Of a stretch of 64,000 nt of DNA, positions 53,365 to 56,757 are shown piece by piece. Source of the DNA: a virus. Taxonomy: Duplodnaviria > Heunggongvirae > Uroviricota > Caudoviricetes. The notes beneath the pieces were generated by a model, which was not told the DNA's origin, did not search any database, and worked only from the letters and a program-made list of their open reading frames with translations. A program made the position numbers and the translations under genes. The stretch lies in IMG/VR virus record IMGVR_UViG_3300020061_000005. The stretch is one strand, 5' to 3'. How positions within the stretch are numbered: position 1 is the first letter of the stretch; each line of letters opens with the position of its first letter.

Positions 53365-54045
53365 ATGAGGCGCTGGGCGGCTGGATCCAAGAAAGGACGC
53401 GAGCCGAACAACGAACGGGAGAAGAAGTTCGCCGATGCGTACCTGCGCTCGCACGACGCGCAAGCCGCGTGGCTCGAAGCGGGTTACTCACCCCACACCG
53501 GCACGCGTGAGGCGGCCGTGAAGGTGCAGCTCCTGGCGCCGTACATCGAGCGAACGCAAAACGCCATCGCCAAGGAAGTGAGTAAGGTGTTCGTGCTCGA
53601 TCAGCAGACCATCCTGGATGAGATGATCGCGGTGGCCTTCGCCAATCCGCAGGACTATATCGATGAGGTGGTGCAGATCGTGGATGGCCAGGAGGTGCGC
53701 AAGCACGTGCGCAAACCCATCATGTCGCTCACTCGCTCGCAGGCCGCGGCGATCTCGGAGATCACATTCAACCCGGATGGCACGGTGTCATACGTGCTAC
53801 CTGGCCCGAAGGAGAAGCACCCCTTCCAGAAGGATCTTGGCCAGCACTTAGGGCTATTCCATCCGAAGCTGATCCAGGAGCATCGCCATCGGCATATGCA
53901 CGCGCACATCGACATGAAGGATGTCGACCAGAAATCCCTGTTGGGCGCGGAACAAATGCTACTGCAGGCGCTTGGGCACCGTGGGAACCTGCTTTTGGGC
54001 TTGCAGCCACACCCGGATGACGAGGACGAGTCGGAAAATATTTGA
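53365..54045 (+). CDS. Terminase small subunit (Terminase_2-like)
   Basis: EKKFADAYLRSHDAQAAWLEAGYSPHTG. ATGA-coupled. Confidence 0.65.
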   Translation: MRRWAAGSKKGREPNNEREKKFADAYLRSHDAQAAWLEAGYSPHTGTREAAVKVQLLAPYIERTQNAIAKEVSKVFVLDQQTILDEMIAVAFANPQDYIDEVVQIVDGQEVRKHVRKPIMSLTRSQAAAISEITFNPDGTVSYVLPGPKEKHPFQKDLGQHLGLFHPKLIQEHRHRHMHAHIDMKDVDQKSLLGAEQMLLQALGHRGNLLLGLQPHPDDEDESENI

Positions 54046-54070
54046 CAGGGAAGGTTATACGGGTAATATT
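54042..54070 (+). promoter_or_regulatory. Sigma70-like promoter TTGACA-N17-TAATAT containing the phage direct-repeat motif GGTTATAC-GGGTAATATT
   Basis: Exact -35 and a near-consensus -10 at 17-nt spacing. Sits over the TerS stop codon. Confidence 0.5.
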
Positions 54071-54094
54071 CGCGCCCACAGGAGGTCCAGGGCT

Positions 54095-54274
54095 GTGCGT
54101 GCAAACGTCATTGTGAGAAGCGAATCCAACAGCATCGTTCACCTCGTTGATACCAACATCGACGAGCAGAGCGTGCTGGACGTGGTGGCGCGACTTCGCA
54201 GGGACTACGGCGCCGGCTACAAGATCGACCTGGCACAAATTGAATTGGCGCGGCTGGCAGCAGCCACGCAGTGA
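54095..54274 (+). CDS. Small protein (59 aa)
   Basis: AGGAGG nine nt upstream of a GTG. GC3 about 72%. Confidence 0.4.
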   Translation: MRANVIVRSESNSIVHLVDTNIDEQSVLDVVARLRRDYGAGYKIDLAQIELARLAAATQ

Positions 54275-54278
54275 AAGG

Positions 54279-55045
54279 CGAGCCGGATTGCGGCGGGTTA
54301 ACACCGTTAATGCTATCCCCGTCACTGTTGACACGTTCGCCCCTGATTGAAGTATGCGAGCCGGAGCACCGAGGGTTATCTTCCAAATCTGACATCCCTC
54401 ACCGCACTTACACGTTCGCAGCCGAGTGTGATTCAAGCTGGTTGAGCTGCCTTCGGGTGGATCGATTCAGTGGCAAAAGCCCACCGCATGTACCCGGCGA
54501 TATAGGGGCAACGATTTTGAAAGGCGAGTCGGAAGTGGTTCGTTATCGACTTGTAATCGAGAGGTCGTGGGTTCGAGTCCCATCGGGTGCTTCGGTGCCT
54601 GTAGCTCAGTTGGTCAGAGCGCTAAACGCGGACTGCATTTACACATTCGCCGCTGATTGAGGAAGACGAGCCGGAGTTGAAGGGTTAACGCAAAACTGTG
54701 GGTCGTGGGTTCGAATCCCATCATTCGCTTCGGCGGGTGTAGCTCAGTCTGGTAGAGCAATAGTAAAATATCCTTCTGCGCTACACGTTCGTCGTTTGAA
54801 TTCGGAAGATGGGCCGATAGGGATTGGTTATCTTGGTTAACGTAGGTTCGACTCCTATCGTCACCTGGGCGAAAGCAGAGGTGGCGTAATCCGATCTCGC
54901 ATTACACGCCCATCGTTGATTTTGGTATTCGGGCCGGAAGGGTCTCGTTATCCTTCGCCAAAACTTGAAGGCTTGGTGTAATCAGGTGCACGCCGTTTCC
55001 AACAGGGGACGGAGGATGGGTTCGAATCCCGAGCAAAACGCGAGG
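54279..55045 (+). ncRNA. Array of Y-RNA-like / tRNA-mimic modules (YrlA-like candidates) upstream of Ro60 gene
   Basis: ORF-free region. Two tRNA-like D-arms sit at 54602-54620 and 54740-58. Four T-arms with GGTTCGANTCC loops sit at 54567-83, 54705-21, 54842-58 and 55016-32. Adjacent halves do not pair into tRNAs. Six copies of GRGYCGGARG...GGTTAWC units occur, each preceded by TTACACGTTCGCC...TGATTGA. Boundaries are approximate. Confidence 0.5.
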
Positions 55046-55101
55046 TCTGCTGACACGTCCGAATTTGTTTCTTCCACGACTCAGTATGAGAGGGTCCGAT
55101 C

Positions 55102-56757
55102 ATGGTCAACTACGCAAAGCACGTCTCCCCTGCTGCGACTCCGCAGTCCCAGCCACTTCCTGGCCGCACCGACATGGTGAAGAACGCAGGCGGTGGCTAC
55201 GTCTTTCAGGTGTCCGACATGGAGCGTGTCCGTCGCTTCCTGATCCTGGGTTCCGAGGGCGGCACTTACTACGCATCCGAAGCCAAGCTCACGCGCGACA
55301 ACGCGGCCACCGTGCTGGCTGCGCTCGACGCAGATGCGACGAAGGTCATCGACTTGGCGGTGGAGGTTTCCGACAAGGGCCTGGCACCGAAGAACGATCC
55401 TGCGATCTTCGTCCTGGCGCTCGCGTCAGTCTCGAAGGACGTGGGCACTCGCCAGTACGCGCTGTCGAAGCTCTCGGAGATCTGCCGCATCCCGACGCAC
55501 CTGTTCACTTTCGTGCAGTTCCGCCATGATCTGGGCGGTGGCTGGGGTCGTGGTGCGCGCAAGGCGGTTGCTGCCTGGTACACGAAGCAGTCGCCCACGG
55601 GGCTTGCGATCAATGCGCTCAAGTACCAGTCGCGCAACGGCTGGGCTCACCGCGATCTGCTGCGCCTGGCGCACCCGGTCACGAAGGATGCTGGCATGGT
55701 CAAGGTGTTCGATGCGATCAGCCAGCCAGCGGGTGGCGAGCGTCGTGCGCCGAGCACCTCGAAGACCGAGCCACCGCGTAATCGTGGTGATGGTGCTGGC
55801 TGGGAAGGTCTGCGCTCGATCAGCGTGGTGGATGGCTGGCTGAAGATCCAGGCGGGCGATCTGAAGCCTGCGCAGGCGGCCAAGGTCATCACGGACCATC
55901 GCCTGCAGCGTGAGTTCATCCCGACCGAGCTGCTTACCAGTGCAGAGGTGTGGGAGGCATTGCTGCCGAACCTGGGTTACACGGCGCTGCTGCGCAACCT
56001 GGGCACCATGTCGAAGGTGGGGCTGCTCGCTCCATTGTCGGCCGCCTCGAAGTACGTGCAGGCCAAGCTGGGCGAGGGTGAGTCGATCACCAAGGCTCGC
56101 GTGCATCCGTTCAGCGTGCTCCTGGCGCTGCGTACGTATGCACAGGGCCATGGCTTCAAGGGCAGCAACACCTGGACGGTGGTGCCGCAGGTAGTCGACG
56201 CACTGGATTCGGCGTTCGATCTGTCGTTCGGCAACATCGTGCCAACCGGCAAGCGCTTCATCCTGGGCATCGACGTCTCCAGCTCAATGTCCACGCAGAT
56301 CAACGGTAGCCCGATCAGCTCGGCAGAGGCGGCGGCGGCGTTTGCGATGATCACGGCGCGCACCGAGCCGGCTTATGGTGTGTTTGGCTTCACGGATCGC
56401 TTCCAGGATCTGAAGGTGACGGCGCGCGATTCGCTGGCCACGGTGTGCACGAAGGTGCAGCAACGCAATTTCGGTTCGACCGACTGCGCGGTGCCGCTGC
56501 GCTGGGCTCGTCAGAACAAGGTGGTGGCCGATGCGGTGCTCGTTTACACGGATAACGAGACGCACGCGGGTCCGACGCACGCGCTGACGGAGCTGCAGGC
56601 GTACCGCAAGGAGTCGAGCATCAACACCAAGCTGGGCCTGGTGGCGTTCACCGCGACCGCGCATTCGGTAGCAGACCCGACCGATGCCGGCTCGATGAAC
56701 TTCGTGGGCCTGGATGGTTCGCTGCCTCAGGCGATTGCGGCGTTCGTGACTGGCTGA
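55102..56757 (+). CDS. rsr: Ro60/TROVE-domain protein (Rsr ortholog) with C-terminal vWA
   Basis: [103 protein letters not shown] and [17 protein letters not shown] are all colinear with human Ro60. Confidence 0.9.
   Translation: [551 protein letters not shown]

Follow-up and report, generated by a model that had tools for sequence, protein, structure and literature searches.

The window, a 64,000-nucleotide stretch of DNA from a virus of the class Caudoviricetes, carries a Ro60/Rsr gene that is preceded by six tandem Y-RNA-like units, an open reading frame (ORF) for a 59-aa protein and a promoter-like site, and is flanked by the genes for the two terminase subunits, terS and terL (Table 1). 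The region from 54042 to ~56792 is probably (at an estimated probability of about 0.8) a self-contained phage transcription unit, comprising the 59-aa protein, six Y RNAs and Ro60/Rsr. Its insertion between terS and terL, as reported in an earlier note, was verified; it is conserved in relatives and common to three related ~77-kb phages. The best phage matches of TerL were the TerL proteins of Roseobacter phages (38% identity).

Table 1. Features of the locus, in order of position. R1 and R2 are unit models, A1 and A3 covariation alignments (see text).
Feature	Position	Strand	Description	Support
terS	53365..54045	+	small terminase subunit; upstream boundary	Pfam Terminase_2 1.1e-12; phrog_51 terminase small subunit 2.4e-12
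Sigma-70-type promoter-like site	54042..54069	+	TTGACA (54042-47), N16, TAATAT (54064-69)	10/12 consensus matches
59-aa ORF	54095..54274	+	conserved; GTG start; first gene of the unit	AGGAGG 9 nt upstream
U1	54277..54341	+	65 nt, short type; helix 1 GGCGAGC/GUUCGCC, bulged C, G:C, helix 2, GGUUAAC loop	R1 56.8 bits, E=2.8e-14; A1
U2	54355..54420	+	66 nt, short type; helix 1 UGCGAGC/GUUCGCA, helix 2 GAGGG/CCCUC, GGUUAUC	R1 69 bits, E=7.7e-18; orthologues in L002, L003, L005 73-91% identical
Non-Y segment	54421..54522	+	~100 nt	conserved with L003 4471-4573
U3	54523..54651	+	129 nt, YrlA type; helix 1 GGCGAGU/AUUCGCC; T arm 54567-54583; UUCG-looped 7-bp acceptor-like hairpin 54584-54601; D arm 54602-54620	R2 109 bits; A3; constrained fold
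U4	54665..54793	+	129 nt, YrlA type; helix 1 GACGAGC/GUUCGUC; T arm 54705-54721; UUCG-looped 7-bp acceptor-like hairpin 54722-54739; D arm 54740-54758	R2 112 bits; R1 33.6 bits
U5	54808..54914	+	107 nt; helix 1 GAUGGGC/GCCCAUC; T arm 54842-54858, followed by a 7-8-bp hairpin; D arm absent	R1 42.4 bits; R2 49.5 bits; folds
U6	54928..55063	+	136 nt; helix 1 UUCGGGC/GUCCGAA; helix 2 GGUCUC/GAGGUC; internal hairpins; T arm 55016-55032; D arm absent	R1 34.4 bits; closest match last unit of L005 (65%); folds
Ro60/Rsr	55102..56757	+	551 aa; TROVE ring domain and vWA domain, MIDAS motif DVSSS...T...D	see text
Hairpin	56761..56792	+	strong; right after Ro60 stop codon	-24.8 kcal/mol, z=-2.5
terL	57699..59339	+	large terminase subunit; downstream boundary	phrog_38 terminase large subunit 7.3e-64

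Ro60 and the accompanying elements

The 551-aa protein is a full-length Ro60. The ORF described in the earlier note was recovered with all four quoted peptide motifs, and the profile search proposed there yielded a match to the TROVE (HEAT-repeat ring) domain (Pfam PF05731; 1.8e-39, 136.6 bits, cut-off 23) as well as to vWA_Ro60 (PF25045; 8.9e-51), whose profile was covered in full (1-165). The MIDAS motif is intact, with D391-V-S393-S-S395, T460 and D484 invariant among 20 homologues. Residues 13-545 were colinear with residues 5-530 of Xenopus laevis Ro60 (PDB 1YVP; E=3.6e-115, 389 bits), and the structures 9NEN and 2NVO were likewise colinear. Human RO60 was matched at 2.1e-113, and Deinococcus radiodurans Rsr more weakly than vertebrate Ro60 (1.3e-101, 344 bits). 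Based on sequence homology only, the protein is predicted to adopt the ring fold and to bind Y RNA on the outside of the ring and single-stranded ends within the cavity.

The promoter-like site overlaps the terS stop codon. It had been described as a consensus promoter with N17 spacing; the TTGACA and TAATAT elements are present and conserved, but separated by N16. At the equivalent position, L002, L003 and L005 carry TTGAC(A/C/T)...GGTAA(T/C)A(T/C)T, and the site is regarded as a putative promoter by its similarity to the consensus. The 59-aa ORF, which the earlier note does not mention, has counterparts at the same position in these three loci (50-64% identical) and gave no Pfam or PHROG match. 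The ~770 nt upstream of Ro60 had been considered free of ORFs; a mechanical 129-aa GTG ORF (54271-54660) does occur in the gap, but its low GC3 (0.55) is unlike that of real genes (~0.75-0.85). The ~100-nt segment is confined to this sub-lineage; its stems appear to be maintained through base changes relative to L003, it had no Rfam match, and the window copy was not thermodynamically stable (z=+1.3). The hairpin behind Ro60 may represent the 3' end of the unit, which is uncertain because this hairpin has no U tract; terminator-like hairpins with T tracts were found at the corresponding place in L003 and L005.

Units of the array

The 827 nt upstream of Ro60 hold all six repeat units that had been recognised before, located on the same strand 39-825 nt before the ATG and hence within the limit of Chen et al. 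2014 (encoded <4 kb from Ro60, same strand). The units share a docking module in which the two ends of each unit form a 7-bp helix; a bulged C and G:C pair, a second helix, GUUAWC and a conserved 3' CAC complete it. The stem-bulge feature, a terminal helix of both ends with the bulged C as predicted Ro60 site, was found in six of six. Human Y1 is similar, with a 5' ...G(U/C)CCG(A/G)A... strand, a later GUUAUC and a 3' strand whose CAC adjoins the helix. For the pattern (7 nt)-CG...GTTA...CAC-(7-nt complement), six matches fell within the 827-nt gap and a single one, due to chance, within the remaining ~127 kb (both strands). The 5' motifs read GCCGGAU, GCCGGAG (twice), GUCGGAAG, GCCGAUAG and GCCGGAAG, and relative L003 has GCCGAAGG; GNCG is invariant, and five of the six units have G at position 5 (GNCGGA, compared with the published GNCGAAN0-1G). 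The string "TTACACGTTCGCC...TGATTGA", previously taken for a leader of each unit, is really the 3' strand of the previous unit plus the spacer, as TTACACGTTCGCC is the 3' strand of each unit and pairs with the same unit's 5' strand. The spacers are A/U-rich and 11-15 nt long (consensus GUUGAUUUUGRAA), and the spacer motif was found 3' of 34 out of 40 units, compared with a background of 5%.

The distal modules vary. U1 and U2 are minimal hairpins without a tRNA-like part, whereas U3 and U4 each hold a full tRNA mimic of the YrlA type (T arm, closed acceptor-like stem-loop, D arm, enclosing stem) and U5 and U6 have a T arm but no D arm. The two D-arm strings and the four T arms reported earlier were located (the latter at 54570, 54708, 54845 and 55019), although the variable base of the T arms is G, A or C, not only G or A (third T loop, GGTTCGACTCC). 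U3 additionally contains an anticodon-arm-like hairpin, UCGA-CUUGUAA-UCGA. In U3-type hairpins the 7-nt loop resembles an anticodon loop, (C/A)U-NNN-AA, with a middle triplet that varies among phages (UGU, GUU, GCA, AUU, GCU).

Covariation over 10 related loci strongly supports the unit helices. For the short units (A1), 91.9% of the cells were paired and covariation amounted to 0.561, as against 0.215 in shuffled alignments (0/500) and 0.08-0.18 when the alignment was slid. The terminal helix (A2, 40 units) reached 94.1% paired cells, a covariation of 0.627 vs 0.25 and compensation in six of eight pairs, a test that is partly circular because units were chosen partly by requiring pairing; this selection does not bear on helix 2 of A1 or on the T, acceptor-like and D helices of A3. 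In the YrlA-type units (A3; 16 units, 7 loci), 96.7% of the cells were paired and 20 of 23 pairs showed compensatory change (0/500 shuffles on all five measures). Model R1, built from the short units, hit the array only within the 64-kb window, and in 80 bacterial rsr loci the short-unit model matched almost exclusively on the rsr strand. The folding energy of single units was unremarkable (z from -0.3 to -2.8). The Y-RNA-like, tRNA-mimic interpretation put forward earlier is thus supported by units with covariation-backed structure.

Arrays of about 4-9 such units adjoined Ro60 in all nine related loci fetched. U2, U3 and U4 were 67-91% identical to same-order units of other phages and at most 67% identical to their own neighbours; the array is therefore old and each unit has been kept. 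The position between the terminase genes and the spacing of the direct repeats (~130-140 bp) would also suit DNA-level packaging sites, i.e. pac/cos-type terminase-binding repeats. This explanation is extremely improbable: base pairing rather than sequence is conserved, the units are strand-specific, and they accompany Ro60, not terminase, in loci without terminase genes (L006-L008, L095 and bacterial loci).

ARAGORN detected zero tRNA genes in the whole window, and the T and D arms therefore form no cloverleaves, as the earlier note had stated; nor did the array contain a cloverleaf with paired acceptor ends and an anticodon arm in canonical order. Rfam tRNA matches arose only where the alignment bridged adjacent units, with inserts of 76-77 nt and acceptor pairs that were mismatched. 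Like phage tRNA gene clusters, the array consists of tandem, tightly packed, same-strand structured RNA genes with canonical T and D arms, and such clusters frequently adjoin Ro60 in other phages; unlike them, it has no free-acceptor cloverleaf, its element order is permuted and a Ro-type bulged helix closes the units. A decayed or rearranged tRNA gene cluster with functionless T and D arms would fit the location of other phage and Myxococcota Ro60 genes inside tRNA gene clusters, as well as the bridge from the U3 D arm to the U4 T arm, which reaches the 29-bit cut-off of the Rfam tRNA model. That bridge, however, has a 77-nt insert and two mismatched acceptor pairs, whereas the acceptor-like hairpins within units pair at 7/7 positions, and ARAGORN called no tRNA. 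The permuted order of T arm, hairpin and D arm within a covarying terminal helix has moreover been kept across the A3 units; decay would not preserve it, and this reading is highly improbable.

Comparison with known Y RNAs

Rfam YrlA (RF02553) matched U4 over the full model (1-114; 41.4 bits, E=1.8e-7) and U3 (32.9 bits, E=5.2e-5), both on the Ro60 strand and <0.6 kb from the gene. No unit in the window attained the gathering cut-off (69 bits); the two mycobacteriophage loci tested, Sparky and Dandelion, gave 36 bits and also stayed below it. The metazoan Y_RNA model (RF00019) had no match in the window at E<=10, so that the covariance-model check suggested earlier gave hits below cut-off for YrlA and none for Y_RNA. 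Stem-bulge RNA RF01656 scored 15.3 bits (E=6) on U4 only, too little to count as a match, and does reach its cut-off on short Y units of related bacterial loci.

The array resembles YrlA/YrlB of Salmonella Typhimurium, Mycobacterium smegmatis and mycobacteriophages (PMC4201824) in its location on the Ro60 strand <1 kb away, the 5' GNCG... motif and conserved YUAY-type motif (here GUUAWC), the order of T arm, closed acceptor-like hairpin and D arm within stems in U3 and U4, the 7-bp acceptor-like stem (M. smegmatis), and the presence of more than one Y RNA per locus, some without a full tRNA domain (U1 and U2 being YrlB-like). It differs in its sub-threshold YrlA scores, in GNCGGA instead of GNCGAA, and in packing six units tightly into one array whose A/U-rich spacer is conserved. 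In addition, both strands of the Ro-binding helix are recognisable, with the bulged C and 3' CAC, whereas only the 5' strand is in Salmonella and M. smegmatis (PMC4201824). In D. radiodurans both strands are conserved, as in the phage, a T-arm-containing effector module is present, and several small RNAs are encoded upstream of rsr (PMC4201824); that system, however, is cellular and stress-induced, and its tRNA-like elements are ordered differently from those of the YrlA type. Metazoan Y RNAs and nematode stem-bulge RNAs (RF00019, RF01656) share the end-to-end terminal helix and single bulged C; the phage array differs from metazoan Y RNAs in possessing tRNA-like modules and in having no Pol III context or oligo-U tail.

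Thermus phage phiLo likewise encodes Y-like RNAs (Yrl1 and Yrl2) directly upstream of Ro60 on the same strand, with a proposed complex involving host PNPase (NAR 2025, PMC12135203). Its Ro60 is distant (34.5 bits to the phage protein vs 389 bits for frog Ro60), it has two RNAs instead of six, and binding and structure have been shown for phiLo, whereas Ro60 binding is predicted for the present locus. The novelty implied earlier was overstated. Ro60 is annotated in 365 phage records, YrlA-like RNAs were described in 2014 in 22 phages, mycobacteriophages among them (PMC4201824), a phage Ro60 with two Y-like RNAs upstream of it has seen biochemical study of these RNAs (PMC12135203), and tandem arrays are frequent in bacterial rsr loci too, 2-4 units being common in related ones. 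The locus is thus a large, well-preserved example of a type of system already known in bacteria and phages.

Proposed function

Host RNA polymerase would start at the conserved sigma-70-like promoter and produce one precursor, which would be cut within the spacers to release individual Y RNAs. Alternatively, the units could act in cis as a structured 5' leader of the Ro60 mRNA, through which Ro60 autoregulates without release of separate Y RNAs. All six units indeed share a strand with Ro60 and are located between its start codon and the sole promoter-like site found, the array showed no internal promoter or terminator, and U6 ends 38 nt before the ATG. A cis leader is nevertheless quite unlikely, given that related bacterial arrays lie downstream of rsr as often as upstream, that relative L097 has promoter-like TTGAC-N17-TACACT sequences inside its array, that known Y RNAs in rsr operons accumulate separately (PMC4201824), and that six units kept as distinct types exceed what autoregulation needs.

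As separate RNAs, the units would each use the bulged helix to dock on the outside of the phage Ro60 ring, in the manner of the Xenopus and Deinococcus complexes, and the distal module would tether Ro60 to host proteins that handle RNA, namely PNPase and those recognising the tRNA elbow. Analogous cases suggest this tethering function: in D. radiodurans and S. Typhimurium, Rsr is tethered to PNPase by Y RNA (PMC4201824), the Rsr-Yrn1-PNPase complex of the former being the source of the proposed mechanism, and a Thermus phage Ro60 complexes with two upstream Y-like RNAs and host PNPase (PMC12135203). During infection, structured-RNA decay or quality control might be redirected, or host defence blunted.

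It is also conceivable, but unlikely, that the tRNA-like modules mainly protect the phage, as decoys or shields, from anti-phage systems of the host by which tRNAs or nucleic acids are sensed or cut, with Ro60 as their carrier rather than an RNA-decay adaptor. The Ro60-like gp130 of phage Bas63, whose gene adjoins tRNA genes, was reported to counter the Ppl defence system (PMC11482910); the variable middle triplet of the anticodon-like loop in U3-type units and the true tRNA genes beside Ro60 in relatives point the same way. Against this, anticodon-like hairpins are also present in 37 of 91 YrlA-like units from bacterial loci and those of other phages and are therefore not a phage-specific adaptation, U1 and U2 have no tRNA-like part, and no defence system or target was identifiable here.

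Under the tethering model, the six units could tentatively be viewed as a non-redundant adaptor panel, with one Ro60 dock and effector modules held constant across phages for several host partners (PNPase, tRNA-elbow readers such as RNase P and perhaps anticodon-loop readers), a proposal that we consider rather doubtful. The U3 type keeps an anticodon-arm-like hairpin, a variable-loop-like AGGUC, the T arm, the closed acceptor and the D arm; this would make it an intermediate surviving from the origin that has been proposed for YrlA, in a dimeric tRNA transcript. If the panel reading holds, this compact lineage of ~77-kb phages with 4-9 distinct Y RNAs per genome would provide a natural system for the study of Y RNA effector modules.

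A phage Ro60 gene and its upstream Y RNA-like units

The ORF upstream of terL encodes a 551-aa protein that, judged by its sequence, is a Ro60/Rsr orthologue, as the earlier note had proposed; all peptides quoted there were located in this ORF. A profile comparison, suggested as a check, returned matches to Pfam TROVE (1.8e-39) and, over its full length, to the Ro60-specific vWA domain (8.9e-51). Xenopus Ro60 (1YVP) aligned with the phage protein end to end (E = 3.6e-115) and human RO60 was matched at 2.1e-113, whereas D. radiodurans Rsr (1.3e-101) and Ro60 of Thermus phage phiLo (8e-8) matched less strongly. 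The nearest cellular Ro60s were at most 47% identical, and the MIDAS residues D391, S393, S395, T460 and D484 were unchanged in all 20 homologues compared.

The stop codon of a small ORF (54274) is separated from the Ro60 ATG by 827 nt. This gap had been described as carrying no ORF; a mechanical ORF of 129 aa does overlap the array, but its GC3 is 0.55, compared with 0.75–0.85 in real genes. All sequence features named in the earlier note were found in the window. The gap contains four T-loop motifs (GGTTCGANTCC), two D-arm strings and, six times, a longer repeat unit (U1–U6; see table). As had been stated, the tRNA arms do not form cloverleaves, and ARAGORN called no tRNA or tmRNA in the whole window.

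Each unit opens with a 7-nt strand and CG, and closes with CAC and the strand's complement; the strand pairs vary between units, with pairing kept. Because the units end in this manner, TTACACGTTCGCC, previously taken for a leader before each unit, is really the 3' strand of a unit and pairs with its own 5' strand. When both strands of the window were searched for this grammar plus the GTTA motif, all six units in the gap were recovered, with one chance match elsewhere. In the common core, helix 1 (the 7-bp terminal helix) is followed by a bulged C and a G:C pair, then by an internal loop with CA on the 3' side and by helix 2; the distal part opens with the motif GUUAWC. In U1 and U2, this distal part is a short loop. 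U3 and U4 have the permuted arrangement by which YrlA is defined: the T arm is followed by a closed acceptor-like hairpin of 7 bp with a UUCG cap, and this by a D arm. U5 has a T arm plus hairpin and lacks the D arm, and U6 combines a T arm with several hairpins. The folds of U4, U5 and U6 are homology-constrained; free single-sequence folding favoured other pairings.

Coordinates of features in the window and in the loci compared
Feature	Sequence	Position	Strand	Remarks
ORF, 2934 aa	window	21448-30252	+	inorganic-pyrophosphatase-like PF18823, PBECR5 nuclease-type PF18814
Short adenylosuccinate-synthetase homologue, 374 aa	window	39089-40216	-	Pfam 3.9e-45
RecT/YqaJ recombination pair	window	44430-46411	-	
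RusA resolvase gene	L001 (window's own contig)	61-681		short way upstream of terS
TerS gene	window	53365-54045		upstream flank
59-aa ORF	window	54095-54274		strong ribosome-binding site
U1	window	54277-54341	+	helix 1 GGCGAGC / GTTCGCC
U2	window	54355-54420	+	helix 1 TGCGAGC / GTTCGCA
Non-Y segment, about 100 nt	window; L003	54421-54522; 4471-4573		between U2 and U3
U3	window	54523-54651	+	helix 1 GGCGAGT / ATTCGCC
Anticodon-like hairpin	window	54548-54562		in U3; also L090, L092, L093, L078, L046 and others
T-loop motifs	window	54570; 54708; 54845; 55019		
D-arm strings	window	54602-54620; 54740-54758		
U4	window	54665-54793	+	helix 1 GACGAGC / GTTCGTC
U5	window	54808-54914	+	helix 1 GATGGGC / GCCCATC
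U6	window	54928-55063	+	helix 1 TTCGGGC / GTCCGAA
Ro60/Rsr orthologue (by sequence), 551 aa	window	55102-56757	+	Pfam, structure-sequence matches, MIDAS residues
Strong hairpin	window	56761-56792		after Ro60 stop
TerL gene	window	57699-59339		downstream flank
tRNA genes near Ro60	L005; L002; L096; L097	5277-5846; 8119-8192; 5235-6022; 5532-5607		
Tandem runs found with R2	L029; L046; L038	492-1022; 1161-2270; 4809-5391		L029 architecture as in window; also L051, L052, L054 and others
RF01656 above cut-off	L026; L009; L029	2210-2275; 1070-1141, 1905-1974; 2368-2439		also L033, L035
YrlA-type model matches	L091 (Gordonia phage Mareelih)	5540-5664; 5746-5873		55 and 75 bits
Rfam YrlA match	L091	5767-5866		52 bits

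Related phages and the layout of the cassette

An identical Ro60 protein was found on a 76.9-kb metagenomic contig, and nine relatives with 51–69% identical Ro60 were fetched. In three of them (L002, L003 and L005), the locus runs from terS through a small ORF, the gap, Ro60 and further small ORFs to terL, while the others are phage-like with a different gene context; arrays of about 4–9 units of the same grammar adjoin Ro60 in all nine. The phage has not been described before, since megablast of 24 kb against phage records gave no match. When viral contigs were scanned with the Ro60 protein, no confirmed relative emerged, and TerL was most similar to that of Roseobacter phages (38% identity). 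In relatives, true tRNA genes (up to seven in a row) lie between Ro60 and terL or just after Ro60; unlike L002, L005, L096 and L097, the window has no tRNA gene in its 64 kb.

The locus lies between the TerS and TerL genes, as the earlier note had it. Of the sigma70 promoter described there (TTGACA-N17-TAATAT), both hexamers are present at the end of terS, with a spacer of N16 instead; their position and sequence are kept in L002, L003 and L005. Between this promoter-like site and the array lies a 59-aa ORF, found at the same place in these three relatives (50–64% identity). Searches of the small ORFs around Ro60, including this one, against Pfam and PHROG gave no function or family match; the 59-aa product may act together with Ro60 and the Y RNAs.

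The spacers between units measure 11–15 nt and are A/U-rich in a genome of 60% GC, with the consensus GUUGAUUUUGRAA; this motif is present after 34 of 40 units, compared with 5% of random 16-mers. The spacer length leaves no room for separate promoters. Behind the Ro60 stop codon lies a strong hairpin, and terminator-like hairpins with T tracts occupy the matching place in L003 and L005. We infer a single promoter-to-hairpin cassette, whose precursor would be cut within the spacers; an RNase E-type enzyme is our guess for the nuclease. U2 and U3 are separated by a segment that does not belong to the Y units; it is kept in L003, with hairpin stems that appear to be maintained through base changes. 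When searched in all loci, it was found only in L001 and in the pair L003/L004, whose two Ro60 proteins are identical to each other, and it had no match in Rfam.

The window has a RecT/YqaJ pair for recombination, and a gene for a RusA resolvase lies shortly before terS; the cassette therefore sits where the replication/recombination genes meet the packaging genes. Elsewhere in the window, the best PDB matches of the adenylosuccinate-synthetase homologue were ordinary PurA enzymes; PurZ proteins, phage homologues of this synthetase, lead to 2-aminoadenine DNA. The giant 2934-aa ORF looks like a polyvalent phage protein.

Covariation and relation to known RNA families

An alignment of 17 short units (A1) with a two-helix consensus had 91.9% of its cells paired and a covariation score of 0.561, compared with 0.215 after shuffling (0/500) and 0.08–0.18 with the partners slid. 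Helix 1 aligned over 40 units was 94.1% paired, with 6 of 8 pairs compensated, a result that weighs less because the units were partly selected for pairing. In 16 YrlA-type units (A3), 96.7% of cells were paired over helix 1, T arm, acceptor-like hairpin and D arm, 20 of 23 pairs were compensated, and no shuffle attained the observed value in any of the five measures. The constraints on the array act at the RNA level, and this covariation excludes both decayed tRNA genes and DNA-level terminase sites as explanations. U2, U3 and U4 are 67–91% identical to the units of the same order in L002, L003 and L005, compared with at most 67% to neighbouring units in the window; therefore, the array is old and its types have been maintained separately, which argues for different roles over dosage.

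At gathering thresholds, Rfam gave no match in the whole window. Below its 69-bit cut-off, the YrlA model aligned in full with U4 (41.4 bits, E = 1.8e-7) and, in U3, with the tRNA-like core (32.9 bits, E = 5.2e-5). Of the two covariance models proposed earlier, YrlA was thus matched sub-threshold; the metazoan Y_RNA model found nothing in the window. YrlA-like RNAs were reported in 2014 in 22 phages, mycobacteriophages among them (PMC4201824). Mycobacteriophages Sparky and Dandelion scored only 36 bits with the same model; phage members thus commonly score below the cut-off. Where the published 5' motif of YrlA reads GNCGAAN0-1G, five of the six units have GNCGGA, and its conserved YUAY corresponds to GUUAWC. 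The nematode stem-bulge RNAs (RF01656), which are homologues of Y RNAs, reached only 15.3 bits in the window, on U4. RF01656 did exceed its curated cut-off on short Y units that adjoin rsr genes of bacteria, which points to a close similarity of bacterial and animal Ro-binding modules.

In many YrlA-type units, the T arm is directly preceded by a hairpin whose 7-nt loop conforms to the pattern of an anticodon loop, (C/A/U)U-NNN-(A/G)N (for instance CUUGUAA, CUCAUAA or CUGUUAA); a variable-loop-like AGGUC comes after this hairpin. Its presence in 37 of 91 YrlA-like units elsewhere ruled out that the hairpin of U3 is a phage-specific novelty. YrlA has been described as lacking an anticodon loop. 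YrlA has been proposed to originate from dimeric tRNA transcripts, with which the hairpin agrees.

Occurrence elsewhere and proposed role

In 365 phage records, the annotation includes a Ro60-like gene. Ro60 of one Thermus phage binds the PNPase of the host as well as two Y-like RNAs encoded upstream of it (PMC12135203), three abundant RNAs lie upstream of an Rsr-like gene in a Listeria phage (PMC12282133), and phage Bas63 counters the Ppl defence through a Ro60-like protein (PMC11482910). With a covariance model built from the short units (R1), 0–3 units per locus were found in 80 bacterial rsr loci and 0–2 in six deposited phages. A model of the YrlA-type units (R2) gave at least one match in 51 comparison loci; 30 of these, including loci of uncultivated Verrucomicrobiota, Chloroflexota, Armatimonadota and Myxococcota, had tandem runs of 2–4 units, either before or after rsr. 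Because R1 and R2 were trained on the window's clade, these counts are lower bounds. R1 with filters off lost most long units and was left out of the counts; a loose regular expression (6/7 pairs) gave equal counts on the control strand of the 80 bacterial loci, and the covariance models were used instead.

Among uncultivated bacteria from several phyla, it is thus common for rsr to have a tandem array of Y RNAs beside it, a fact with no record in the database annotation or literature covered. With six units, the window stands with L002, L005 and L095 (7–9) at the top of the observed range, and its array is not different in kind from the others. The finding is real and was interpreted essentially correctly in the earlier note: the locus is a new, large and well-organised case of the known phage and bacterial Ro60–Y RNA (YrlA-type) systems, unusually rich and tidy, and yields no new principle.

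In Myxococcota MAG contigs L025, L017 and L036, Ro60 lies inside dense clusters of 11–18 canonical tRNA genes within 6.5 kb. In Gordonia phage Mareelih, the YrlA-type matches fall in an annotated tRNA cluster downstream of Ro60, the second coinciding in part with the calls for tRNA-Gln and tRNA-Leu, which themselves overlap each other. A number of phage tRNA annotations may therefore represent parts of Y RNAs.

The locus is a conserved cassette in which a Ro60 gene is accompanied by six RNAs supported by covariation, which have the bulged-helix module in common and differ in their distal modules. By analogy with work on Xenopus, Deinococcus, Salmonella and Thermus phage, the bulged helix would dock on Ro60 and the distal module would recruit a partner, for which PNPase is a precedent; proteins recognising the tRNA elbow are candidate partners of U3 and U4. 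The complex may remodel structured-RNA decay during infection or counter a defence. Conservation of Ro60, a human autoantigen, and of Y RNAs extends from bacteria to humans; to our knowledge, the role of the variable Y RNA part is still largely open. Here, six structurally distinct putative Y RNAs that would share one dock, of types kept separate across related phages, are found in a small cassette of the packaging region. The comparison of loci would also help with annotating 'empty' gaps and some doubtful tRNA calls that adjoin Ro60 genes.
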